Shown here one piece after another: positions 2,278-23,734 of a stretch of 64,000 nt of DNA (within the stretch, counting starts at the first letter, position 1; each line of letters begins with the position of its first letter). The notes below the pieces were generated by a model. The model was not told where the DNA came from. It worked only from the letters and a program-made list of their open reading frames with translations, and searched no databases. The stretch is from a virus: the IMG/VR virus record IMGVR_UViG_3300042861_001913; one strand, given 5' to 3'. A program made the position numbers and the translations under genes.

Positions 2278-3132
2278 ATGCCTTATTTCAATCAATCTCA
2301 AACGTTTCTAGTTGATCCTGCCATTCTCGCATTCAGTGATGGTAATCATCCTAATGTGTCGGCAACTGTGCAGAATACTTACATTAGTCTTAATACTGAA
2401 GCTCGCAAACAAGTTCCTGCTGGACTATTTGTTGCTCAAGTAGGTAACGTACTGCGCTTCCTACCTCGTACTAAGTTAACTGCTGTAACTGCTACTGGTG
2501 CTGCAACTGTAACTGCATCTCCAACTAATATCTTTGTTGCTGGTGATGTATTAACTGTAGTTGAACCATATTCTACGCTAACTATCACTACTGTAACTGC
2601 TGCTCAAACTGTAACTGTTACTGTAGAAGGTTTAACTGCAACTGCAACTGCAACAACTAACAATACTACAACTACTGCTAGTGAAGTTGCTACTGCTATT
2701 AATGCTACTGCTGGATTATCTGATTTAGTTCGTGCAGCATCTATTACTAACAAGGTATTTATCTTTGCAGTTGATGGACTTACTAACCGCGCCATTACAA
2801 CTGCTGGTACTGTAACTAGTGCTGCATTATCTAGTGCAACTCTAGTTCCTAATGCAACTGCTGTTGGTACTATTGCATTTATTGATTACACAACTGGTGT
2901 TATTACATTAACTGGTAACGCAAGTGTAGCTCTACCTATTGGTACTAATATCGGTGTTAGAGTTAATGCAATTGTAGGACTTCATGTTCATGCAGTTGAT
3001 TATACTGTTGCAACAGCTAAGGATCTAGCTCTCTATACTATTGCTAATGGTGTTCGTATCCAGTATCTACCATACTTCGATGGTGATATTGCTAGACGAT
3101 TCCCTGGCATCAATTTCGCTTACAAATTCTAA
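2278..3132 (+). CDS. Thr/Val/Ala-rich head structural protein (decoration or capsid-associated)
   Basis: Lies between the scaffold-like and capsid genes. Has low-complexity TVTAT repeats. No recognisable enzymatic motif. Confidence 0.35.
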   Translation: MPYFNQSQTFLVDPAILAFSDGNHPNVSATVQNTYISLNTEARKQVPAGLFVAQVGNVLRFLPRTKLTAVTATGAATVTASPTNIFVAGDVLTVVEPYSTLTITTVTAAQTVTVTVEGLTATATATTNNTTTTASEVATAINATAGLSDLVRAASITNKVFIFAVDGLTNRAITTAGTVTSAALSSATLVPNATAVGTIAFIDYTTGVITLTGNASVALPIGTNIGVRVNAIVGLHVHAVDYTVATAKDLALYTIANGVRIQYLPYFDGDIARRFPGINFAYKF

Positions 3133-3142
3133 CTAACCGGGC

Positions 3143-3168
3143 GTTAATGACGTATGTTAATGATGTAT
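3143..3168 (+). repeat. 13-nt tandem repeat GTTAATGAYGTAT x2 inside a GC-clamped stem (GGGCG..CGCCC) upstream of the capsid gene
   Basis: Read directly: gttaatgacgtat gttaatgatgtat gtta. It is flanked by ccgggcg and cgcgccc. Confidence 0.6.
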
Positions 3169-4357
3169 GTTATCGCGCCCACTATCCTACTTTTTTCTTA
3201 CTATGGGTTCAGTTTCTAATTTTCTTACCGATAAGTTGCAAGCTAAAGTTGCCGAAACTCTAGTAGACGATACTATTGCTCGTCTGCGTCAGAGAACTAA
3301 ACTTATTGATCAATTCATGCCTATTAAGACGTATGAGGACGATGAGTTCCTAGCATACGTAAGTGAACGTCTCACACCAGTTGCGAACTTTATTGCTCCT
3401 GGTGCTGAACCTCCAGTTATCTCTCATGGTGGTTTCCGTCGAGTAATCGGTCAACTAGCTAAGTTAGGTAATAGCTATTCATTCGATGAAGTAACTCAGA
3501 AACAGATGCGTAAGGCAATGGAAGAAGCTGCCTATAAACGCGCTAGTGTTATGACCATGAAGTTAACTGATAACTCCGTCATTAAGGGTACTAACGATAT
3601 GCTCGTTAAGTATCTCTATGGTCACATTGAGGGGATCGTCCAATCTCATGCTGATAGACTTACTAGCATGGCTTGGCAAGTTGTTCAGACTGGTCAATTG
3701 AGTGTATCTGATGCAATTACTAAGGTTGCATGGACAATTGATTTCCGTCGTCCTGGTGCTAGTTATAACCACTTCCCTGATGCTCTTGTTGCTACTGGTA
3801 ACACTGCATCTCCTAAGTTGAACAAGTGGACTGACTACGCTAATGCTGATGGTATCGCTAACTTAGAAGATGCTGTAACTACTTATGTCAATACTAATGG
3901 TTACAAGCCTGATCTCATCGTAATGAGTAATACTGCATTGCGTGATCTTCAGAAACAAGCATCTACTATTGCTCGTGCTAGACAATCAGTTGGATTTGCA
4001 CAAGTAGGTTCTGTTAGCTTCCCAATGTTACAAGAGGTAATGGCTTCTAATAACCTACCTCCTATTAAGGATTATGATGAGTTCTATCAAGTAGATAATA
4101 CCTACTCTGGTAATACTAATACTATTGATAGCTACATCAGTAATGCTCGATTCCTTAATGAGAATTGCTTCGTATTCCTCAAGGATGGAATGGGTGAGCA
4201 AGCTATTGGTACTCCTGAAGAACAGAAAGTTGTTAAAGATGGTGTATTAACAGGTACTGAATCTCCTGTAATGGTACGTGTTTATGAGAAGACAACTGTG
4301 CCTATCAACGATGTTTTGCAAGCGATTGAAACTTTTTGTAGTCGCCTATTTAAGTAA
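3167..4357 (+). CDS. major capsid protein, HK97 fold, lambda gpE-like; probably exon 1 of an intron-interrupted gene
   Basis: Layout resembles lambda gpE (W.D....D.I, KPDLIVMS, C-terminal VP..D...). The likely true start is the ATG near 3203, because the 3167 ATG lies inside the upstream tandem repeat. The ORF stops 1-2 codons into group I intron-like sequence. Confidence 0.6.
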   Translation: MLSRPLSYFFLTMGSVSNFLTDKLQAKVAETLVDDTIARLRQRTKLIDQFMPIKTYEDDEFLAYVSERLTPVANFIAPGAEPPVISHGGFRRVIGQLAKLGNSYSFDEVTQKQMRKAMEEAAYKRASVMTMKLTDNSVIKGTNDMLVKYLYGHIEGIVQSHADRLTSMAWQVVQTGQLSVSDAITKVAWTIDFRRPGASYNHFPDALVATGNTASPKLNKWTDYANADGIANLEDAVTTYVNTNGYKPDLIVMSNTALRDLQKQASTIARARQSVGFAQVGSVSFPMLQEVMASNNLPPIKDYDEFYQVDNTYSGNTNTIDSYISNARFLNENCFVFLKDGMGEQAIGTPEEQKVVKDGVLTGTESPVMVRVYEKTTVPINDVLQAIETFCSRLFK

Positions 4358-4673
4358 TTAAGTAGTAAAAATTCGGTGAATTGCTGGAAACTCCAGAAGT
4401 GGACAATCAGCAGCCAAGCTTAACCAGGAATGGTTTTGAAGGTTCAACGACTAGGTTTCGAGTCCAGACCGGACAGTAACAAACCCACGAGTGCCGAACA
4501 TCCCAAGTGGATGATGATATAGTCTGAACAGTAGATATAACACATGAAACTACTGATACGTAGGATAAAGAGCTTACGTGGTAACAAAATGATCAATGGT
4601 TTTACCAGTAATTTATTCTCCCAAGAATCTGTATGCTCAAGTAGTTAGATAATAATTCCCTATTTCTAACTAG
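4352..4673 (+). mobile_element. group I intron (IA2-like, apparently ORF-less); boundaries tentative
   Basis: Conserved J8/7-P7 word GATATAGTC (4516-4524) pairs as P7 with GACTA in CAACGACTAG (4445-4454), as in the T4 td intron. P2-like hairpin CTGGAaacTCCAG (4384-4396). Several P9-type hairpins are present. Candidate IGS is GAATTG, with a P10 pairing TCGGT/ACCGA and a G at 4673. Confidence 0.6.
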
Positions 4674-4688
4674 ACCGAGTTTAAGTTG

Positions 4689-4697
4689 TGGTATAAT
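4689..4697 (+). promoter_or_regulatory. extended -10 promoter element TGgTATAAT for the homing endonuclease gene
   Basis: TGGTATAAT lies 27 nt upstream of the ATG at 4724. Confidence 0.4.
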
Positions 4698-4723
4698 GAT
4701 CTTATGACGTAAATGAGATTATT

Positions 4724-6025
4724 ATGCCACAATTTATTTATTTGGTGACAAACTCAATTAATGATAAAAAATATGTTGGACAAACAAATAGGACAATTGA
4801 AAAGCGTTGGTCAGAACATATTAGAGCCGGTAATTATGTTGGAACTAAAAGTTTATTATCAAAAGCAATTAAGAAATATGGTGTAGATAAATTTAAAATT
4901 GAAATTATTAAAACTTTAGAAACAACAGATCAGTCAGAAATTGATAAAACTGAAGTTTATTTTATTAAAGAATATAATGCTTTAACACCTAACGGTTATA
5001 ACGTATTAAATGGTGGTAAAGGTTGTTTTCTAACACCTGAAGGTAAAGAGTATTTAAAAAGAACGATGACGAGTCGTTGGCAGAATAAAAGTTATCGAGC
5101 TTCTATGTTAGGTAGCACTTTAATTTCTGCTAGATTAAAAAACAATACCTCTGAAGCTAAATTAAAACGAGGTAATAGTTTAGTTAGAAATCGTCGTTAC
5201 TTAATAACTACACCAGATGGAATTGAGTATTGTACTTACGGTGTAACTCACTTACAACAACTAGATTTAGATGTAAGTAGTTTAATTAAAGTTGCTCGTA
5301 ATAAGATGACTAATCATAAAGGTTATAAAGTTAAATCACTTAATGATGATTATGTAACTGTAGATAAAACATATTTAGATTACGTTAACAAATACGAATG
5401 TATTAGTTTAAATAAAGATAACTACAGTTTTTGTTCTTATGGTATTGATGCTATTAAAGAACAACTTAAATTAGATATATGTCAGAAGACAATATCACAT
5501 CACATTAATAACGCTAATTTAATTAACGGTTATCAAGTTAGAGATATTAATGCAGAACCAATTATTAAACAATATCTACCAGATGCTGAACGCTTCATAT
5601 TGACAACACCTGAAGGTGTTAGTTTCTGTCGTTACGGTATGGAAGATTTAACTGAAGAAACTGGATTAAATGCTAAAGCGGTGTACCCATTAATGAATCC
5701 AAATAGTCCTCGTTATGGTCGCAAAATTAACGGTTGGAGTTGTGTTAGAGCTAATGAATCAGAGGAAACAAGAGATAAGTTATTAGCTGATAAAGCTGCT
5801 AAGTTAGCTGAAGATAAGTTAATCAATGATGCTAAAAAGAGTTGGCAACAAGTAGTTAATAAACGTTACCTATTAACTAACTTAATAACTAATGAACAGT
5901 TATGTTGTTATGGATTAGTTCATCTCCGAGAATCACATGGTCTAGATGGTAGTTGTTTAATTAAAGTAATTAAGGGTAAAATTAAACATCACAAAAACTG
6001 GACGTGCATTAAGATAGAAAACTGA
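4724..6025 (+). CDS. GIY-YIG homing endonuclease with four C-terminal repeat modules
   Basis: N-terminus is FIYLVTNSINDKKYVGQT..R...H......YNVLNGG (GIY-YIG). The C-terminal half has four repeats of about 50 aa of the form Y(L/I)LTTP.G...C.YG.....L......L. Confidence 0.85.
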   Translation: MPQFIYLVTNSINDKKYVGQTNRTIEKRWSEHIRAGNYVGTKSLLSKAIKKYGVDKFKIEIIKTLETTDQSEIDKTEVYFIKEYNALTPNGYNVLNGGKGCFLTPEGKEYLKRTMTSRWQNKSYRASMLGSTLISARLKNNTSEAKLKRGNSLVRNRRYLITTPDGIEYCTYGVTHLQQLDLDVSSLIKVARNKMTNHKGYKVKSLNDDYVTVDKTYLDYVNKYECISLNKDNYSFCSYGIDAIKEQLKLDICQKTISHHINNANLINGYQVRDINAEPIIKQYLPDAERFILTTPEGVSFCRYGMEDLTEETGLNAKAVYPLMNPNSPRYGRKINGWSCVRANESEETRDKLLADKAAKLAEDKLINDAKKSWQQVVNKRYLLTNLITNEQLCCYGLVHLRESHGLDGSCLIKVIKGKIKHHKNWTCIKIEN

Positions 6026-6054
6026 CATTAACAGCGAAGCAAATAACACTTATA

Positions 6055-6084
6055 ATGATGGTAGTAATTATCATCATTTTTGTT
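6055..6084 (+). terminator. rho-independent terminator after the homing endonuclease gene
   Basis: 9-bp stem ATGATGGTA / TATCATCAT with loop gtaat, followed by TTTTGTT. Confidence 0.6.
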
Positions 6085-6512
6085 ATGGGTAGACGTATTG
6101 GTAGTAAAGATAAAGTTAAACGACGCAATCAATTTGGTTTAACTAGAAGTGATCTAATTAATGAACGTAAGAAACAAGGAACTACGCAATAGCGGGATCT
6201 GCGGTAGGTGGGACAATTGGATATGGTGTAAGTAGAAAATTAACTAAAAGATTTGATGCAAATATTAAGTTAGCTCAAAATAATTTAGATGATGCAATTG
6301 CACGTAAACCTACTTTAATGAATGACGTTAGACTTAGTGCAATGAATGATGATGTAATAAATCAATATAAGAATGCTATTAATAAAACTAGAAATGCAAC
6401 TAGATTACTTAAAGTTGCAACACCATTAGCAGGAGCAGCTATAGGAACTGGAATTACAATGGGTTACTTAGCTAATCAACGGGCAAAGAAACAACGTAAT
6501 AGGCTCAAATAA
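6085..6512 (+). pseudogene. leader-family gene split by a frameshift
   Basis: MGRRIGSKDKVKRRN.. (6085-6192) ends at a TAG. The Gly-zipper part (AIAGSAVGGTIGYG...ATPLAGAAIGTGITMGY) continues in the -1 frame from about 6171 to 6512. Confidence 0.4.
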
Positions 6513-6513
6513 C

Positions 6514-6825
6514 ATGGCACGTAAACTAGGTTCTAAAGACAAGAAGAAGCGTAAACTTAGATTAGTTAACATAGGTACAGTAGGTGGACTTGGTGCAATT
6601 GTAGGAAGTGGAGTTAATATGATTGGACTTAAATCATTAACTGAACAACGAAAACGTGAGTTAGGTGTAAGTAATTTAGACATAAGGGATAAACGACGTA
6701 AACTAACTGAACTTATTGCTAATGATTATCGTAATGATTTTAAATCAGGTAAACGTATTGTAGATGAAGCTAAGAAAGTAGCGGTACTTACATATCAAGC
6801 TAAACGAGATACGGGAGCTAAGTAA
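6514..6825 (+). CDS. leader-family protein
   Basis: MARKLGSKDKKKRK followed by VNIGTVGGLGAIVGSGVNMIG. Confidence 0.55.
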   Translation: MARKLGSKDKKKRKLRLVNIGTVGGLGAIVGSGVNMIGLKSLTEQRKRELGVSNLDIRDKRRKLTELIANDYRNDFKSGKRIVDEAKKVAVLTYQAKRDTGAK

Positions 6826-6848
6826 ACGATGATGAGTTACGTGAAGTT

Positions 6849-7079
6849 ATGGAACGTCCGAATAAGTTAATTGAGCAGTTTACTAAACAAGCTAAAGATA
6901 GAGGTAAATCGCAATCTAATGTTAGACGTACTATAACTAAACAACTTAAAAATGATGCTTATAACGCAAGTAATAAAATCATTAAATCACGTCTATTAGG
7001 AGGTGCTGCAATTGGAGCATTAGCAGCAGGTGGAAGTTATGCAGTTTATAAGAAGTTAACTAAACGTAAGAATAAATAA
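6849..7079 (+). CDS. small basic protein with C-terminal Gly-zipper
   Basis: LLGGAAIGALAAGGSYAVYKKLTKRKNK tail, like other family members. Confidence 0.45.
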   Translation: MERPNKLIEQFTKQAKDRGKSQSNVRRTITKQLKNDAYNASNKIIKSRLLGGAAIGALAAGGSYAVYKKLTKRKNK

Positions 7080-7239
7080 CTCTATTTAACTTGTTTATAT
7101 AACTTCTGCAATACTTTATCTCTACTAACATTTTTAACTTTAGATTCTCTAGTTCTAATTCTCTTTTGTAATGACTTACTTAACCTATACCATTTAGACT
7201 TAGGAATATACATGATAGATAACTTAAACAACTTTAACT

Positions 7240-7593
7240 ATGATAACTCTAATCAATGATCTGGCTAACTTCGCACGAGGTAAAGGTGATAAGGATAAAC
7301 GTAAGAGACAAGTTAAACGTGCTGGTAGATGGTGGACTCCTAATCAAGTAACTGCTGCAACTAGACCTGGTAAAAAGAATGCTGTATTAGCAAGTAAGAA
7401 AATAAATGGAGTTGTTAAATATAAACTACTTAACTTTGGTGACAGTACAATGAGTGATTGGACTAAACACAAGGATAAGAAGAGACGTTCAAATTACTTA
7501 TCTCGTAGTGGTGGTATTAGAAATAAGAGTGGTGAATTAACTAAAAACGATAAGTTCTCAGCTAATTACTGGAGTAGGAAAATTAATTGGTAA
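7240..7593 (+). CDS. leader-family protein with basic C-terminal domain
   Basis: MITLINDLANFARGKGDKDKRKRQ leader. No hydrophobic segment. W/K/R-rich C-terminus. Confidence 0.55.
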   Translation: MITLINDLANFARGKGDKDKRKRQVKRAGRWWTPNQVTAATRPGKKNAVLASKKINGVVKYKLLNFGDSTMSDWTKHKDKKRRSNYLSRSGGIRNKSGELTKNDKFSANYWSRKINW

Positions 7594-15370: not shown

Positions 15371-15615
15371 ATTTAGCGGCATTAATTGAGATATATGGTG
15401 GTGTTGAGAATGCACTACTACTAGTTAACTCACTAGATGATCTGGAGATACATGATCTGATTAATCAGACAACTGAGTTACGTAAAGATCCATCAGTTCG
15501 AGATGCTGAGGAAGTAGAAAGAGATTGGAATGATTATGTTATTAATAATGATCTAGATCAGGAGATAATCGTAGACGGTAAGAAAACAAGTATAAATCAA
15601 TTAATGGGGTTCTAA
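15328..15615 (+). CDS. -1 frame extension of the tail chaperone (GT-like fusion product)
   Basis: The open -1 frame reads ..KKNDTGTTRSSYAIDLAALIEIYGG...VDGKKTSINQLMGF. Its stop overlaps the tape-measure start. Confidence 0.5.
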   Translation, partial: KKNDTGTTRSSYAIDLAALIEIYGGVENALLLVNSLDDLEIHDLINQTTELRKDPSVRDAEEVERDWNDYVINNDLDQEIIVDGKKTSINQLMGF

Positions 15616-18600
15616 TGGATCAATATAATCAAGACGTTAACATTAACTTCCAAGGTGAAGATAATATAAGTGGAGTTATTGATAAAGTTAATGAGAAAGT
15701 TGGTCTATTACAGAACTCCGTAATGGCGGCTAATTTCGGGTTAGGTGCATTTGGTAAACAGTTATTTACTAACTCTGATAACTTAGCTAAGTTTACTAAG
15801 GTTCTTGGTACAACTGATGTTCTATTAAATAAGACATTTGCAGTAACTGGAGTAGTTAAAGTATTCTCAATACTAGGAACTGGTATTAATGATGCGAAAG
15901 CTAACTTAGATGGATTTAATGATGGATTGAAAGCAATGCAAGCTAGTGGACTTGATATTGGCATTATTACGCAATTCACGCAATTACAAGATGCAGTATT
16001 AGGAAGTCGTAATGCTCTAGATTCATTTAGTTTAACTGCATTAACTACATTTAATAGATTCAATAAAGTTAAATCAGAAGTAGCTACATTGTTTCCTGAG
16101 AATGATCCATTTATTAAGAATCTATCTACTAGTATTCAGAAACTAGTTAATGAGGATCTTAAAAATGCAGTAACTAGTATTGACGCATTAAAAGCTAGTT
16201 ATGAAGCTGCGTCGTCTGGTTTTACTGAAGCTGCTGATAACCAAGCTGTAATGACAGCAGGACTTAAATTAGCTAAAGCTGGTGGTGCTGATACTGGAGC
16301 AACTATGAAGGTACTTGCTCAAACTATTAGTGCTTATAATCTGAGTGCTGGTGATGCAACTAAAGTTAGTGCAGTTCTAAATCAAACTGTACAATTAGGT
16401 ATAACTACAATACCAGAATTAAGTAATGGTTTTGCTCAAGCAGCAGTAACAGCTAACGCAGCTAAGATTAAATTGCAAGAGTTAGGTGCTGCTGTAGCAA
16501 CATTAACATTAAAAGGTTTTGACACAAACAGTGCATTAACAGGTATTGAATCATTATCGCGCGTAATTATCAGCAAAACTCCTCAAGCTGCTGCTGCATT
16601 GCGAGAATTACGTGATGAAGGTGGTAAACCAATTAGATTTGACGTTAGTGAAATAAAAGCTAAAGGTCTTACTAAAGCAATACAGGATTTAAATATAGCA
16701 GCTAAGGGTAACGTTGAAGTAATTCGTGAAATAATTGCAGATTCTACTTCTTATAATACTTTCTTAGCATTAGCAGCTAATAACTCTGAGAAATTGGGTG
16801 AATTTACTCAGAAGATGTTTGATGTTAGTAAAACAGGTGAAGTTGCACGTAAAGCATTAGATAGTGTATTTGGAATTAAATTAAATAACCAAGCTGAAAC
16901 ATTCGATGCAATTGTAAATAGAATAACTGAACAATTCATACAATTTGGTGAACAGTTAGCTCCATTCTTTGACACTGGAGTTAAAGCATTAGAAACGTTC
17001 ACTAAAACATTATCTGGAATTAGTCCAGAAATGAAGAAGACTATAGCATCAATATTGCTAGGTCAATTAGCATTTAATAAAGTAACTGATACTATTGGTA
17101 TTTTAGTTGGAACTATAACTAAAGCATTCTTAGCATATCAAGGTTTGCGAGTAACCTTGATGTTCATGAATGGAACTATAGGTGAACAGTTCAACTTAAT
17201 TAATGGATTAATTAAAACTAAAGCAGGATTAGTTCCCGTAATTAAACAGTTAATGGGATTTGATCAATCACATCTATTAATACAAACTAAATTAAATACA
17301 GTTACTAAAACTAGGGGTGAATTGCTTAAAGCTGTATTTACTGGAGAAGGTGATAGATTAACTAACCTTAAACAATTAGTTGGTTTAGAGAAACAATATG
17401 AACTTAATGTAGGTGAGTTAAACAAAACATTAGATGGTAGAAATAAGATACTTGATAATCAAGTAGATAAAGTTAATGGAGTTATTAAAGCAACGGCTAA
17501 AGTAAAGGATGCTGAAGCTACAGCTAACTCTATTAAACAAGAAGGTCTACAACTATTAGATGAGTTAGAGATATCTAATGCTAAACAACTTGATATTAAA
17601 ACTAAATTAATTAAGGTAGAAGATGATCTTAAATTAGGTGGTTCTAATACTGTTGCATTACAGAAGGAATCAATACTACTTAATAATCAATTAACTAATT
17701 CACTTGATGAACAACAACAACTACAAGAGTTAATTAACGTAAATAACGTTAAGTATGGTGATGCAACTAAAGCATTAGTAACATCAGAACTCGCACTTGA
17801 TTCAACTAGACTTGCAGCTAAGGAAAGACTTAGTGTTATAGTTACTAAACAATTAGCTATTGAACAACTGCAAGCTAACTTAACTATCTATAATGAGAAA
17901 GCAGTTAAGTTATCTACTGCTGCTGAGTTATTAAGAACTAAAGCTAAAGTTGATTCTGCCAACGCTTCTATTTTCTTACAACGTGCAGAGTTTCTACAAA
18001 CTAAATCAACTGAATATGCAACGTTAGCAACTACAACTCAAACTGCTATTATCGCTGGTAATGCAGAAGTTAGAAAACTTAAAATAGCAGCATCATTAGC
18101 AGAACAAGTTGCTGATGGTAATTTAATTAAAGTACAAGTAGGTTTAGGTACTAGTTACATTGCTAATAGTTTACTAACGAGAATACTGTTCTTCGATATT
18201 ACTAATTTAGCTGGAGCTACTAAAGCAGCTAGTGTTGCAGGAACTGGATTTGCAGGTGTAATTGGTGGTTTATGGACAACATCAATTGGTATAGCTAGTG
18301 CAACATTAAGATTCCTAGATGCTCAACTTACAACACTGTATCTTAAATTAGCTCCATTTACATTAGCGTTAGCTCCCATAGCAGTAGCATTAGGATTAAT
18401 TGGTACTATTGGTTATGAAGCATTCTTCGGAATGACAGGTCAATTAAATAACTTAAATAAAGAATTAAAAGAATTAGATAAACAAGGACAACTTAATTTA
18501 ATACGTGAATTAGATAAATTACAAATTAATAAACAACTTAATGAATCAGAACAGAAGAGATTACAACTATTGAAAGAATCAGTAAGTGTAGCTAAAGAAG

Positions 18601-21600
18601 CTGATGAAAGTTCTAAAGGTGTTATGGATCGTGTGGGCGATTTTAATAATACTATAGAAAAGTTTAATGCAACTAAAATTATATTTAATGGTATTATCAG
18701 TGGATTTGGTAAAGTTATTAATTTATTTAGAGCAGATGCTGTAGTAAAAGTTCTTGATGATATAGATGTTGCATCATTAAAAACTCGTGATTCTATTAAT
18801 GAATTAACTAAATCAACTAAGAAACTTCAATTGGGATTTACTGGAATTGAAGAAGTAGATAAATTAATTAAGCAAGGTAAAATACTTAGCGCAACAGACA
18901 TAGATAAAATTGCTAATGAAGCTAAAGTTGCAACTAAGAGAACTGAATTAGAAATATCAATTAATGAAAATAAAATTAAGGCAGTTAGTGAACAACTTAA
19001 AGATTTCGATAAGTTAAGTATTGAAGAACGTAAACAAGCTAGTGACCACGAAAAACAATTAGATACACATCGTACAATATTAGAAACTGCTAATGATAAA
19101 TTGAAAGACGTACTAAGTAAGAAAAAAGAGATAGATAAGGCGCGAATAGAATATCAAACTCAACAGAACATATTACTTAAGCGCGTATTAGATAATAATC
19201 TGGAAATAGAAAAAGGTAGCACTACTATAGAAGGTGATCAAGGAGCTAACGCACTTCAAACTAGAATGAAGAAGGGACTTAGATTGGCGCAAACTGATCT
19301 AGAACAATATCGTCGTCAAGTTAAAGCAACATTAGATGGAACTGGTGAATATCTTGATGCTAATAATAAGAAGGTTAAAATTGACGTAACTGATATGACT
19401 GATTACGTTAATAAATTTGACACTAATGTTAATGGAGTTATTAGTAGTATTGATCAGTTATATCAAGTTAATGGTACTAGTGCAACTGAAGCAGCTAAAA
19501 CACTTAAAGCTGTATTAGATACTAATAAACAAGAGATGAATATAACTGATTATATTAATGGAATTAACCAAGCTATAGGTTACATGAGAGATGGAAGTAA
19601 AGTAACAATAGACTTACTTAACTTAGAAGGTGAAACTCGACGGGCTATGTTAGATAGTGGAGTTACATCAACTAGAGAAACAAATGCTGCGATACGTAAG
19701 TTAAATGCAGCTAAGTTAGAAGAGGAAATTAATAATCAGAAACAACTAATTGAATTTACTAAAGCTACATCTGGTGCAGATCAGAAGAAGTTAGATGCTG
19801 CTAAGTTAAAGTTACTTGAACAACAACTAGCTGCACAACAACGTGATAATCTTAAAGCTGAATTAGATGAAAGATTTAAACAACAACAAGTAGCATTAGA
19901 TAGAGAACAAGAGCTAATTAAGTTAGATAAAGCTAAACGTCTTATTAGTGAAGAAGAATATAACAATAAGATAGCTGAGGATACTAAACGTAACTTAGAT
20001 TTAAAACGTAAACAACTACTACAGGAACTAGAGTTAAATAAAAATGATTTAGAGAAAACTAAGTCTATTAATAATCAATTACTAGGAATTGATGTACAAC
20101 AACAAGAGTTAATAACATCTAATTTAGAACGTGCAATTAATGTACGATCTAAAAAACGTGAATTAGAGTTAACTAGAGAACAAGCTTTAGTTGTTTTGAA
20201 TAGAAGTAAGTTCTTAACTACTGAAGAACAATCTATCAGAGATATAGATGTGGTAAGAAAAAAGGAGATATTAAATAAACAACTATCTCTTAATGAACAA
20301 CTTAAGTTAGTTGAACATGATAAAACTAAACAGACGGAAATACAGAATCAATTACTTAATCTACAGTTAGATTATCAGAAGATAATAACTGATAATTTAG
20401 AACGTGAGTTTACTAAACGTAGTAAACTCATTGAAAATGCCGCGAATAGAACTAAGTTAGTTTACCGTGAATTAACTAACACCATTGATAATAATGTAGC
20501 ATCACTTAACGAAGAGAATAAGATAATAGATAGTCGTAATAAGTTAACATCATCTACACTTGAAAATGAAAGTGCGCGATTAACTAACTCACTTAAAGTA
20601 ACTAACGATATTGAGAAACGTGCTGCTATTGAAACTAAGATAGCTCAACTGCGCGAATCTAATCGTGTAGTTACAGATGCTACTGAACAACGTAGTTTAA
20701 TTAATCAACAGAAGTTAATTGAATTATCATTGCAGAAACAACAAATAGAGTTAGATAGTCGGCGCAATGATGCTAATAATAACAGTAAGTTAATACAACT
20801 TGAGTTAGAGAAAGCTATTAAACAGAAGAGAAATAAAGAAGATATAGATGCAATTAAAATTAGATTAGATGCTAATAAACAAGAACAATTAGCTATCACT
20901 AAACAGAATGAGTTACTAGATGTAACTAAACGTAATCAAAGTGAGATTAATAGTAATGCAAGTAGAGAACTAGAGATTAGACAACGTATAGGTAGAGAAG
21001 GTGGATTGCTCGATCTAGAGATAACTAAACAAAATGAGAAAATAGCTAGGTATGAGAAGATTGCACAACTGGCAAATCTAGAAGCTACAATTGCAGAAAC
21101 TAATGCTAATAAAATGCAATTAGCTGGTGATCTACAAATTAAAAATTACCAAATGCGATTAGACCTTCTTAATAAACAAGCTGAATTAGAACAACAGCAT
21201 CAAGATAATACACAACGTATGTTTAAGATGGCTGAGGGATTAGCAGTAAGTGATTATCAGAAACGTAAGTTAGCAGAACAAGCTGCTAAACAAGAGTTAC
21301 TTAACCTTAATAAGAAACATCAAATAGAACGTGATATATTAGCTATTCAAATTAAGATGAATGAACTAGCTCTAATTAAAAGTGAGTTAGATCAAAAGAG
21401 TGCCGAAAAGAAATTAGCAGCAGAACTTAAAGTACAAGAAGCTGAAACAGCTAAAGTATTAAAGAGTAGAACTGCAACTGATGAAGAGAAGAAAGGATCA
21501 TTAGCAACATTAGATGCTAAGAAGTTTGCATATCAAGCTAAGTTAGAAGAACGTCCTATATTAGAACAGCAAGCAGAATTAAATAGATATACTAATACTA

Positions 21601-22040
21601 TTCAAAAGGCTGCATTAGATAATAAACAACGTAATGAAACTCAAGATAAGACCGTTGCAGTTGCTAAATCTACATTTACTACTGCTGATGATCGTGCCAT
21701 TTATCGGGCATTAATGAATAATCTAAGAGGAGATAGACGTGAGTTAGATAACACTCGTATTAATTTCAGTCAGGAGAAGTTATCCAACTTATTTTCTTAC
21801 CCTAATAGTAATGTCAACTTAGAAAGACCTAACTTTGATTCAAATAGTGGTAAGTCTAAATCAAGTAATAGTAAGTTAAATAAAGATGTAGTTATTAACT
21901 TTAATCCAACTACTAATATTGAAGTTAAAGGAAGTGCTGATGTTAAGGAGTTCTCTAAACAACTTAATAGTGAAAGTGATAAGTGGATTAAGGGACTTCA
22001 TGAAACACTTCGTAAAGTTAACACTGAATTAGGTAACTGA
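15615..22040 (+). CDS. tape measure protein (2141 aa)
   Basis: Giant coiled-coil Q/K/E/L-rich ORF with central hydrophobic segments (..LAPFTLALAPIAVALGLIGTIGYEAFFG..). It follows the frameshifting chaperones. Confidence 0.85.
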   Translation: MDQYNQDVNINFQGEDNISGVIDKVNEKVGLLQNSVMAANFGLGAFGKQLFTNSDNLAKFTKVLGTTDVLLNKTFAVTGVVKVFSILGTGINDAKANLDGFNDGLKAMQASGLDIGIITQFTQLQDAVLGSRNALDSFSLTALTTFNRFNKVKSEVATLFPENDPFIKNLSTSIQKLVNEDLKNAVTSIDALKASYEAASSGFTEAADNQAVMTAGLKLAKAGGADTGATMKVLAQTISAYNLSAGDATKVSAVLNQTVQLGITTIPELSNGFAQAAVTANAAKIKLQELGAAVATLTLKGFDTNSALTGIESLSRVIISKTPQAAAALRELRDEGGKPIRFDVSEIKAKGLTKAIQDLNIAAKGNVEVIREIIADSTSYNTFLALAANNSEKLGEFTQKMFDVSKTGEVARKALDSVFGIKLNNQAETFDAIVNRITEQFIQFGEQLAPFFDTGVKALETFTKTLSGISPEMKKTIASILLGQLAFNKVTDTIGILVGTITKAFLAYQGLRVTLMFMNGTIGEQFNLINGLIKTKAGLVPVIKQLMGFDQSHLLIQTKLNTVTKTRGELLKAVFTGEGDRLTNLKQLVGLEKQYELNVGELNKTLDGRNKILDNQVDKVNGVIKATAKVKDAEATANSIKQEGLQLLDELEISNAKQLDIKTKLIKVEDDLKLGGSNTVALQKESILLNNQLTNSLDEQQQLQELINVNNVKYGDATKALVTSELALDSTRLAAKERLSVIVTKQLAIEQLQANLTIYNEKAVKLSTAAELLRTKAKVDSANASIFLQRAEFLQTKSTEYATLATTTQTAIIAGNAEVRKLKIAASLAEQVADGNLIKVQVGLGTSYIANSLLTRILFFDITNLAGATKAASVAGTGFAGVIGGLWTTSIGIASATLRFLDAQLTTLYLKLAPFTLALAPIAVALGLIGTIGYEAFFGMTGQLNNLNKELKELDKQGQLNLIRELDKLQINKQLNESEQKRLQLLKESVSVAKEADESSKGVMDRVGDFNNTIEKFNATKIIFNGIISGFGKVINLFRADAVVKVLDDIDVASLKTRDSINELTKSTKKLQLGFTGIEEVDKLIKQGKILSATDIDKIANEAKVATKRTELEISINENKIKAVSEQLKDFDKLSIEERKQASDHEKQLDTHRTILETANDKLKDVLSKKKEIDKARIEYQTQQNILLKRVLDNNLEIEKGSTTIEGDQGANALQTRMKKGLRLAQTDLEQYRRQVKATLDGTGEYLDANNKKVKIDVTDMTDYVNKFDTNVNGVISSIDQLYQVNGTSATEAAKTLKAVLDTNKQEMNITDYINGINQAIGYMRDGSKVTIDLLNLEGETRRAMLDSGVTSTRETNAAIRKLNAAKLEEEINNQKQLIEFTKATSGADQKKLDAAKLKLLEQQLAAQQRDNLKAELDERFKQQQVALDREQELIKLDKAKRLISEEEYNNKIAEDTKRNLDLKRKQLLQELELNKNDLEKTKSINNQLLGIDVQQQELITSNLERAINVRSKKRELELTREQALVVLNRSKFLTTEEQSIRDIDVVRKKEILNKQLSLNEQLKLVEHDKTKQTEIQNQLLNLQLDYQKIITDNLEREFTKRSKLIENAANRTKLVYRELTNTIDNNVASLNEENKIIDSRNKLTSSTLENESARLTNSLKVTNDIEKRAAIETKIAQLRESNRVVTDATEQRSLINQQKLIELSLQKQQIELDSRRNDANNNSKLIQLELEKAIKQKRNKEDIDAIKIRLDANKQEQLAITKQNELLDVTKRNQSEINSNASRELEIRQRIGREGGLLDLEITKQNEKIARYEKIAQLANLEATIAETNANKMQLAGDLQIKNYQMRLDLLNKQAELEQQHQDNTQRMFKMAEGLAVSDYQKRKLAEQAAKQELLNLNKKHQIERDILAIQIKMNELALIKSELDQKSAEKKLAAELKVQEAETAKVLKSRTATDEEKKGSLATLDAKKFAYQAKLEERPILEQQAELNRYTNTIQKAALDNKQRNETQDKTVAVAKSTFTTADDRAIYRALMNNLRGDRRELDNTRINFSQEKLSNLFSYPNSNVNLERPNFDSNSGKSKSSNSKLNKDVVINFNPTTNIEVKGSADVKEFSKQLNSESDKWIKGLHETLRKVNTELGN

Positions 22041-23660: not shown

Positions 23661-23734
23661 CCAAACCTGGGCTAATGGTAAGCCGCCTCTTTTGGGAAGA
23701 GGACATCATGAAAGTTCAATTCTTTCGGTTTGGA
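23661..23734 (+). tRNA. tRNA-Pro (anticodon UGG)
   Basis: Hand-folded cloverleaf. Acceptor CCAAACC/GGTTTGG. D stem GGCT/AGCC with loop AATGGTA. Anticodon stem CCTCT/AGAGG with loop TTTGGGA. T stem GAAAG/CTTTC with loop TTCAATT. C1:G72 and A73 are typical of bacterial tRNA-Pro. The variable region is 7 nt and no CCA is encoded. Confidence 0.6.

Follow-up and report, generated by a model that had tools for sequence, protein, structure and literature searches.

Group I introns that lack an open reading frame (ORF) and are paired with a free-standing endonuclease are already known, as are group I introns in capsid genes, and collaborative (trans) homing of such introns has been defined previously (PMC6083498 and PMC3984707). 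In cyanophage S-PM2, for example, an intron in psbA blocks self-cleavage and the free-standing endonuclease F-CphI cuts intron-less alleles (Zeng, Bonocora and Shub 2009, as recounted in PMC6083498). Here we analyze a 64,000-nucleotide (nt) stretch of viral DNA, IMG/VR record IMGVR_UViG_3300042861_001913 (the whole of which we call the window), in which the 3′ end of the major capsid protein gene is interrupted by a group I intron without an ORF and is followed by a free-standing gene for a GIY-YIG homing endonuclease. We consider collaborative homing of this intron by the neighboring endonuclease to be the best explanation of the locus, and a probable one.

The pair in the window resembles that of S-PM2 in combining a group I intron with a free-standing endonuclease, and differs from it, as far as the PMC6083498 account goes, in the nuclease motif (Endo VII-type in F-CphI, GIY-YIG here), in the host gene (psbA there, capsid here) and in that cleavage was demonstrated there, whereas here we infer it. 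The endonuclease gene likewise lies next to, and not within, the intron of an essential gene in T3/T7-like phages, where the intron interrupts the DNA polymerase gene and its neighbor is a free-standing endonuclease gene (Bonocora and Shub 2009, cited in PMC3984707 and PMC10448857), and in ICP1, whose terminase intron adjoins a T5orf172 gene (PMC10448857); this layout has been proposed as a way in which composite mobile introns arise. These cases involve other host genes and nuclease families, whereas many allelic states of our locus are visible in metagenomes. The T4 mobE gene and nrdB intron are a case of trans homing of the defunct I-TevIII (PMC2790892), in which a free-standing endonuclease mobilizes an adjacent intron that is immobile alone, as we propose here; in contrast, mobE is an HNH endonuclease and the T4 intron keeps its defunct ORF, whereas the window intron has none. 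Capsid-gene group I introns have been described in mycobacteriophage LittleE and lactococcal phage Tuc2009 (PMC3706429), and share with the window intron a position in the major capsid gene, where efficient splicing is needed for a very abundant protein, but the LittleE intron contains an HNH gene, sits elsewhere in the gene and has no free-standing partner. To these known pairs the window adds one whose intron lies in a capsid gene and whose endonuclease is of the GIY-YIG type, and it comes from an uncultured phage lineage without a close cultured relative.

The capsid intron and its predicted spliced product

The interrupted gene matches the major head protein family phrog_29 (E value 2.4e-23), and tblastn of its ORF returned annotated capsid genes of Pseudanabaena, Bacillus, Mycobacterium and Gordonia phages. 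The mechanical ORF begins at 3167 and ends at 4357, and the start codon common to the homologs is the ATG at 3203 (MGSVSNF..). In all 23 capsid homologs, which are 35-97% identical and come from a search of 5.8 billion proteins, ..VPINDV(L/I)Q.. is followed by ..(A/S)(I/V)S(M/L)VLPV(I/V)Y.PK.LY.QVV, whereas the unspliced window ORF continues after ..DVLQAI with ETFCSRLFK and a stop codon instead of this C-terminus. Joining 3203-4326 to 4592-4652 gives an 1185-nt coding sequence for a 394-residue capsid protein ending in ..QAISMVLPVIYSPKNLYAQVVR, and the splicing that we predict restores the conserved C-terminus ..LPVIYSPKNLYAQVVR; the C-terminal 19 residues of the capsid protein are kept in homologs down to 35% identity. 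The uninterrupted gene of metagenome contig L001 (2591-3775, capsid 97% identical) is also exactly 1185 nt long. This comparison with an intron-less homolog, which the original prediction had proposed, fixes the insertion site, which lies 20 codons before the gene end and not the roughly 12 first estimated.

A scan with the Rfam group I model, also proposed at the outset, confirmed that an intron is present at the 3′ end of the capsid gene. RF00028 matches the plus strand at 4324-4544 with 80.4 bits (gathering score 50, E 8e-19), and this is the sole Rfam match in the whole 64 kb. We searched all splice pairs within ±25 nt in which the exon ends in U and the intron in G, and in the window only one of them (first intron base 4327, last G4591) restores the conserved capsid C-terminus; the boundaries thus fall between U4326 and U4327 and between G4591 and A4592, with G4591 as the terminal G (Table 1). 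In helix P1, U4326 pairs with G4341 at the 5′ splice site, and two more pairs, U4327-A4340 and G4328-U4339, are internal to the intron. The P1 register of the Rfam alignment, GAAACUUUU/AGUCGCCUA, which has three non-standard pairs, was dropped for GCGAU/GUCGC. No plus-strand ORF of 40 or more amino acids was found inside the intron (4327-4591).

The fold was tested by counting the P2-P9.1 structure of the window on a MAFFT alignment of six related introns. In this alignment 97.0% of cells are standard pairs, and in 28 of 50 pairs both partners have changed in a compensatory way; all of 500 shuffles fell short of every observed measure, and pairing fell to 31-47% when the 3′ partners were shifted by 1-3 columns. 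A single-sequence minimum free energy fold recovered P2, P8, P9 and P9.1 and not the pseudoknotted core. The Rfam alignment places a 36-nt insert between P7 and the 3′ strand of P3, with a 4-base-pair stem that covaries in four relatives (CGAG/CUCG, CUGG/CCAG, CAGG/CCUG and UAAG/CUUA) and a stem in the window that reads GGUUU/AAACC. An additional helix or helices at this place, P7.1/P7.2, mark subgroup IA, to which we assign the intron from this extra hairpin. To judge from the sequence, the group I intron is real, with its catalytic core (P3-P8), the U.G pair of P1 and the terminal G all present, and we predict that it is self-splicing.

The P7 pairing GACUA/UAGUC and the motif GATATAGTC (4516-4524) are present as first described, but the splice model built around them does not hold. 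It put the 5′ splice site after 4351, with CTATTT as the exon strand and GAATTG (4378-4383) as the guide; the former is the 5′ strand of P2, and the latter is J3/4 plus P4 in the Rfam alignment. The terminal G that it proposed at 4673 and the exon 2 at 4674-4712 both lie beyond the true capsid stop, and the resulting C-terminus, ..SRLF-TEFKLWYNDLMT, matches no homolog. The proposed P10 and the rest of the detailed model are contradicted by the 23 homologs and by the intron-less allele, whose length is exactly that of the spliced gene.

The endonuclease gene and its hairpin

As predicted, the ORF at 4724-6025 encodes a GIY-YIG protein, which matches Pfam PF01541 (E 5e-11), the I-TevI catalytic domain 1mk0 (E 2e-5) and the homing endonuclease families phrog_314 and phrog_7168. 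Its catalytic domain (residues 3-96) aligns to 1mk0 with IY, YVG, EKRW..H, IKE and NGYN all kept. The gene starts 71 nt past the true capsid stop and is therefore free-standing, and since exon 2 and the capsid stop separate the two elements it is the intron's neighbor, as had been claimed. We also considered a 3′ splice site beyond 6025, which would place the endonuclease ORF within the intron, and ruled it out on the grounds that the conserved C-terminus and the capsid stop are both encoded at 4592-4652. The G+C content of the endonuclease gene is 25-33%, against 38-43% for the capsid gene.

No Pfam family was found for the C-terminal two thirds of the endonuclease, and tblastn against phages matched the N-terminal ~190 amino acids only, at 36% identity or less. 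The C-terminal part consists of four modules of ~55 amino acids with the shared pattern C-x-Y-G ... G-W/Y, which self-BLAST did not pick up and which may form a modular DNA-binding array. The modules lie at 5190-6025 (residues ~155-433) and show a fuller pattern, ..R/K-Y/F-x-L..C-x-Y-G..L..G-W/Y-x-V/C.., and shorter endonucleases at the same locus have fewer copies of the module, and these endonucleases all end in ..GW.x.KIE.

Between the capsid stop and the endonuclease gene begins a long RNA hairpin (73 nt; free energy -36.7 kcal/mol; z scores -7.5 and -8.6), and none of 200 shuffles was as stable. Its 3′ arm buries the ribosome-binding region and start codon of the endonuclease, with the GAG at 4715-4717 and the ATG at 4724-4726, and a consensus scan also flagged it as terminator-like. 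The extended -10-like motif TGgTATAAT is found in the 5′ arm, where it is a candidate endonuclease promoter, and the consensus scan found no -35 match for it. The motif itself had been correctly recognized, but not its location inside exon 2: with the true exon 2 at 4592-4652, it is intergenic. The same hairpin design occurs before four other endonuclease genes at this position (L004, L025, L078 and L079; z scores -3.0 to -7.7), whose proteins are only ~24-38% identical, and the hairpin of L079 carries a compensatory change from GUGG/CCAC to GCGG/CCGC.

In T4 I-TevI, I-TevII, I-TevIII and segB, and in Aeh1 mobE, a hairpin stops read-through translation and an internal promoter gives rise to translatable transcripts (PMC2988022). 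The window is like these cases in having the start codon in a hairpin and a promoter-like motif inside it, and unlike those of T4 in that the motif, known here from sequence, is a sigma-70-like extended -10 and not a T4 late promoter. By analogy, we suggest that the hairpin and its candidate promoter may control translation of the endonuclease.

The right-hand edge of the conserved cassette, 6028-6084, contains a further promoter-like site and an A+T-rich hairpin (Table 1). The latter corresponds to the terminator first predicted at 6055-6084; a hairpin with a T run is present, at ~6054-6084, but it is weak (region z score -1.7).

Allelic states, insertion sites and the divergent exon tract

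We gathered 110 loci and sorted them by script into intron and endonuclease classes, with intron searches made by nhmmer using a family profile; a metagenome scan yielded few additional alleles. An Rfam gathering scan of L001-L004 was empty, yet a search of a 600-nt stretch gives the L004 intron (6151-6407) 78.9 bits; the miss is an artefact of filtering, and absence in such scans is therefore weak evidence. Related introns were also identified in L072 (two, 5122-5405 and 5433-5707), in L080 (two, 4122-4405 and 4436-4715), in L030 (partial) and, in a different gene, in Flavobacterium phage FpV21.

The endonuclease gene occurs sporadically at this position among close relatives: downstream of the capsid gene, some alleles have it, and in others it is truncated, exchanged for a different one or missing. 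The intron and endonuclease gene of the window are found in identical form in ~30 contigs from different samples. L025 matches the window in exon 1, in the intron (but for one base) and over the first 26 nt of exon 2; from window position 4618 on, its DNA is different and encodes a GIY-YIG protein that is only 28% identical. L001-L003 have no intron, and after the capsid stop retain just the last ~165 nt of the window's endonuclease gene. An uninterrupted capsid gene is accompanied by an endonuclease gene in L033, L078, L079, L040/L094 and L093. The endonuclease is reduced to an 81-codon N-terminal fragment in L073 and L074, and to a 3′ remnant in L080, which has two introns; L075-L077 and ~45 more distant loci have neither element. 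Among the 110 loci, no family intron was found where readable capsid-downstream DNA lacks both the endonuclease gene and its remnant; the contig of L030 ends within its intron, and downstream DNA is unreadable there. Introns were seen only beside an endonuclease gene or remnant. Alleles with the endonuclease alone are common, and few of the lineages are independent. The L001 contig ends (3990-4042) in 55 nt that exactly duplicate a segment ~150 nt upstream, within the endonuclease remnant; this duplication is probably an artefact of assembly at the contig end.

The closest sequenced relative of the ribozyme core is the FpV21/FPSV intron (L070) of a Flavobacterium psychrophilum phage, which is alignable throughout P3-P8 and includes a 54-nt stretch 96-98% identical to window 4368-4421. 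These 54 nt of intron core were the only match when the region was compared with the phage collection by megablast, so no close cultured relative is available. Unlike the window intron, that of FpV21 interrupts a Sak4-like gene, is without P2 and has a GIY-YIG ORF inside it. The deposited annotation of FpV21 (KT876726.1; L070 2374-3880) shows no intron: we find the Sak4-like gene split by a group I intron with P1 GAAGGAU/GUCCUUC and a GIY-YIG ORF at 2701-3288, and the 5′ exon (~2374-2490) is unannotated.

Positions were numbered in the uninterrupted gene starting at the Asp codon of ..LD(V/I).., and on this scale five intron sites lie within 33 nt at the end of the capsid gene (Table 1). For each intron, just one splice pair restores the conserved capsid C-terminus, and each guide matches its own exon and forms a U.G pair with it (GCGAU/GUCGC, GUGU/GCAC, UCAU/GUGA, CCGU/GCGG and GUCGU/GCGAC). 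Five other introns, whose exons differ, follow the same P1 rule as that of the window. The tandem introns are separated by an intervening exon of 27 nt in L072 (5122-5707) and 30 nt in L080 (4122-4715). These two loci are otherwise ~82% identical, and their second introns have different sequences and lie at different sites (35 versus 38). To our knowledge, the S-PM2 system does not show several insertion sites close together, and we found neither a dense cluster of insertion sites nor such an allelic series described in the open-access papers that we searched.

The exon sequence flanking the insertion site is hyper-divergent. Compared with its closest alleles (L001, L031 and L030), the window capsid gene shows ~3% differences over the first 1090 nt and 26-31% divergence over the 50-80 nt around the intron sites, and 13 of the 17 changed codons there are synonymous. 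Co-conversion of flanking exon from a more distant donor would be expected to leave such a trace.

Other genes near the locus are listed here for completeness. The gene after the endonuclease (6085-6512) starts MGRRIGSKDKVKRR and stops at 6190-6192, and a second frame, open at ~6170-6512, encodes a Gly-zipper part (AIAGSAVGGTIGYG..) that is in one piece with the first in paralogs; this split could be a frameshift, a pseudogene or an assembly error, and other contigs diverge here. On either side of the head genes, at 36-1350 and 6085-7593, lies a family of small and highly basic proteins with a common N-terminal motif (FARG/GSKDKKKRK) and Gly-rich zipper-like segments. One of them matches DUF5754 (7240-7593, E 8.6e-9) and another Gly-zipper_OmpA weakly, and the family is hypervariable among otherwise near-identical phages. 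The ORF at 7587-8441 matches the ADP-ribosyltransferase exoenzyme family PF03496 (E 2.8e-9) and has homologs in the same neighborhood of L073, L074 and L078. The window also has an ORF of 2141 amino acids (15615-22040) and a gene for the transfer RNA tRNA-Pro(UGG) (23661-23734).

Table 1. Features of the capsid-endonuclease locus, in window coordinates except for the insertion sites, which are numbered from the Asp codon of the uninterrupted capsid gene
Feature	Position	Strand	Details
Major capsid protein gene, exon 1	3203-4326	+	phrog_29, tblastn, 23 aligned homologs
Hyper-divergent exon tract	4300-4326 and 4592-4635	+	flanks the insertion site
Group I intron, ORF-less	4327-4591	+	265 nt; Rfam, covariation, unique splice pair
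Predicted splice junction	U4326 to A4592		CAAGCGAT joined to ATCAATGG
P1	4322-4345	+	exon GCGAU 4322-4326, internal guide GUCGC 4341-4345; script search
P2	4346-4365	+	8 base pairs, GUAA loop; 5′ strand CTATTTAA 4346-4353
P3	4372-4378/4492-4498	+	
P4	4382-4387/4407-4412	+	
P5	4392-4395/4400-4403	+	
P6	4413-4415/4441-4443	+	
P7	4449-4453/4520-4524	+	GACUA/UAGUC
P7.1 extension	4454-4485	+	
P8	4500-4503/4509-4512	+	
P9	4529-4534/4550-4555	+	
P9.1	4558-4564/4573-4579	+	
Capsid exon 2	4592-4652	+	completes Ile codon, encodes SMVLPVIYSPKNLYAQVVR and stop (4650-4652)
Long RNA hairpin	4674-4746	+	5′ arm 4674-4705, 3′ arm 4713-4746, then T-rich run
Extended -10-like motif TGgTATAAT	4689-4697	+	in hairpin 5′ arm; candidate endonuclease promoter
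GIY-YIG homing endonuclease gene, free-standing	4724-6025	+	433 amino acids; Pfam, PHROGs, 1mk0
Promoter-like TTAACA-17-TATAAT	6028-6056	+	strong in consensus scan; overlaps hairpin
A+T-rich hairpin and T run	~6054-6084	+	10-base-pair stem; weak
Insertion site 8	after nt 8		first introns of L072 and L080
Insertion site 17	after nt 17		window intron
Insertion site 35	after nt 35		L072 second intron; L030
Insertion site 38	after nt 38		L080 second intron; 3′ splice site least certain
Insertion site 40	after nt 40		L004

Proposed collaborative homing and its alternatives

The intron has no ORF, and the endonuclease gene lies outside it and adjoins the interrupted gene. Collaborative homing probably accounts for this anatomy, together with the restored reading frame, the sporadic and modular distribution of the two elements and the divergent exon tract. 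The original prediction had already proposed it, and although its detailed splice model did not survive, the arrangement stands and the relatives fit joint mobility. In such a system the endonuclease would cut the capsid gene at its 3′ end and the intron would protect against cutting. Cutting at the intron site has indirect support from the clustered divergent tract, from the five insertion sites in 33 nt and from the recombination junction of L025, 26 nt into exon 2. Read-through transcripts of the heavily expressed capsid gene would stop at the hairpin or yield no endonuclease, which would be made only from short transcripts initiated within the hairpin, as for T4 I-TevI and segB and Aeh1 mobE. 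During mixed infection, the capsid gene of a naive relative would be cut by the endonuclease near its 3′ end, and repair off the donor genome would transfer the endonuclease gene and the intron together with some tens of bases of the adjoining exon; the target in the donor's own genome would be split by the intron, so that self-cleavage would be prevented. The intron would lie so near the gene end because its target would be close to the endonuclease gene.

Several observations weigh against this explanation. Five alleles carry the endonuclease gene beside an uninterrupted capsid gene, and the intron is therefore not required for self-protection. The association of intron and endonuclease comes from few, phylogenetically linked lineages. 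Near-identical phages differ completely just past the endonuclease gene, which makes this a general recombination boundary, and the divergent tract could have arisen from ordinary recombination at a module boundary. The endonuclease could also target the variable DNA downstream instead.

The best-surviving alternative is that the two elements are neighbors without cooperation, with the endonuclease homing by cutting elsewhere (intergenic DNA or the variable downstream genes, i.e., intronless homing) and the intron moving independently by reverse splicing or being plainly inherited. The endonuclease-only alleles and the divergence just past the endonuclease gene both favor it, as does the occurrence of one intron with two different endonucleases, and the five insertion sites are compatible with transposition by reverse splicing. 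We nevertheless think it unlikely, given that introns are seen only next to an endonuclease gene or remnant, that the five sites cluster so tightly, all ~110-140 nt upstream of the endonuclease gene, and that the divergent, mostly synonymous tract is centered on the intron sites and not on intergenic DNA.

Another alternative is endonuclease turnover, in which the intron once held an endonuclease ORF in its P9 loop that was lost after the free-standing gene arrived, so that the present layout is a leftover. Such an alternative has been proposed (PMC10448857), the related FpV21 intron still holds its GIY-YIG ORF, which starts in the P9 region, and endonuclease variants at our locus are replaced quickly; but none of the six capsid-gene introns retains an ORF remnant, and their P9 and P9.1 are short, with compensatory changes, which makes this history improbable. 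An origin by turnover is compatible with either mode of present-day mobility.

We give very little credence to the idea that the intron is a dead relic that splices no more, leaving the capsid protein to end in ..ETFCSRLFK, since every core helix is intact, as are the U.G pair, the terminal G and the reading frame downstream, the sequence is identical in ~30 contigs, and an untranslated exon 2 would decay, whereas its C-terminal residues are kept in distant homologs. The splice model of the original prediction, drawn from pairings made by eye, has practically no chance of being right, as its guide and exon strand belong to the intron core and to P2 and the bases at 4592-4652 encode the conserved C-terminus.

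We tentatively suggest, as possible without being probable, that the last ~60 bases of the capsid gene are an arms-race hot spot, targeted by diversifying free-standing GIY-YIG endonucleases (at least nine variants at one position), and that ORF-less introns have been recruited repeatedly (five sites in 33 nt, sometimes two at once around a 27-30-nt exon) as target-breaking inserts that travel with the endonuclease gene. If this is true, every stage of the Bonocora-Shub pathway, and of a cycle of invasion, decay and loss, would be represented in the natural series of metagenomic alleles.

As a practical point, gene callers end the capsid protein prematurely at ..SRLFK and omit the conserved C-terminus. 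Of the two origins proposed for mobile group I introns, collaborative homing is one, and few cases of it have been characterized. Public metagenomes offer alleles of this capsid locus with intron and endonuclease, with endonuclease only, with intron and endonuclease remnant, and with neither, and, with synthetic substrates, this allele series makes the idea of an intron as immunity against a neighboring endonuclease directly testable.

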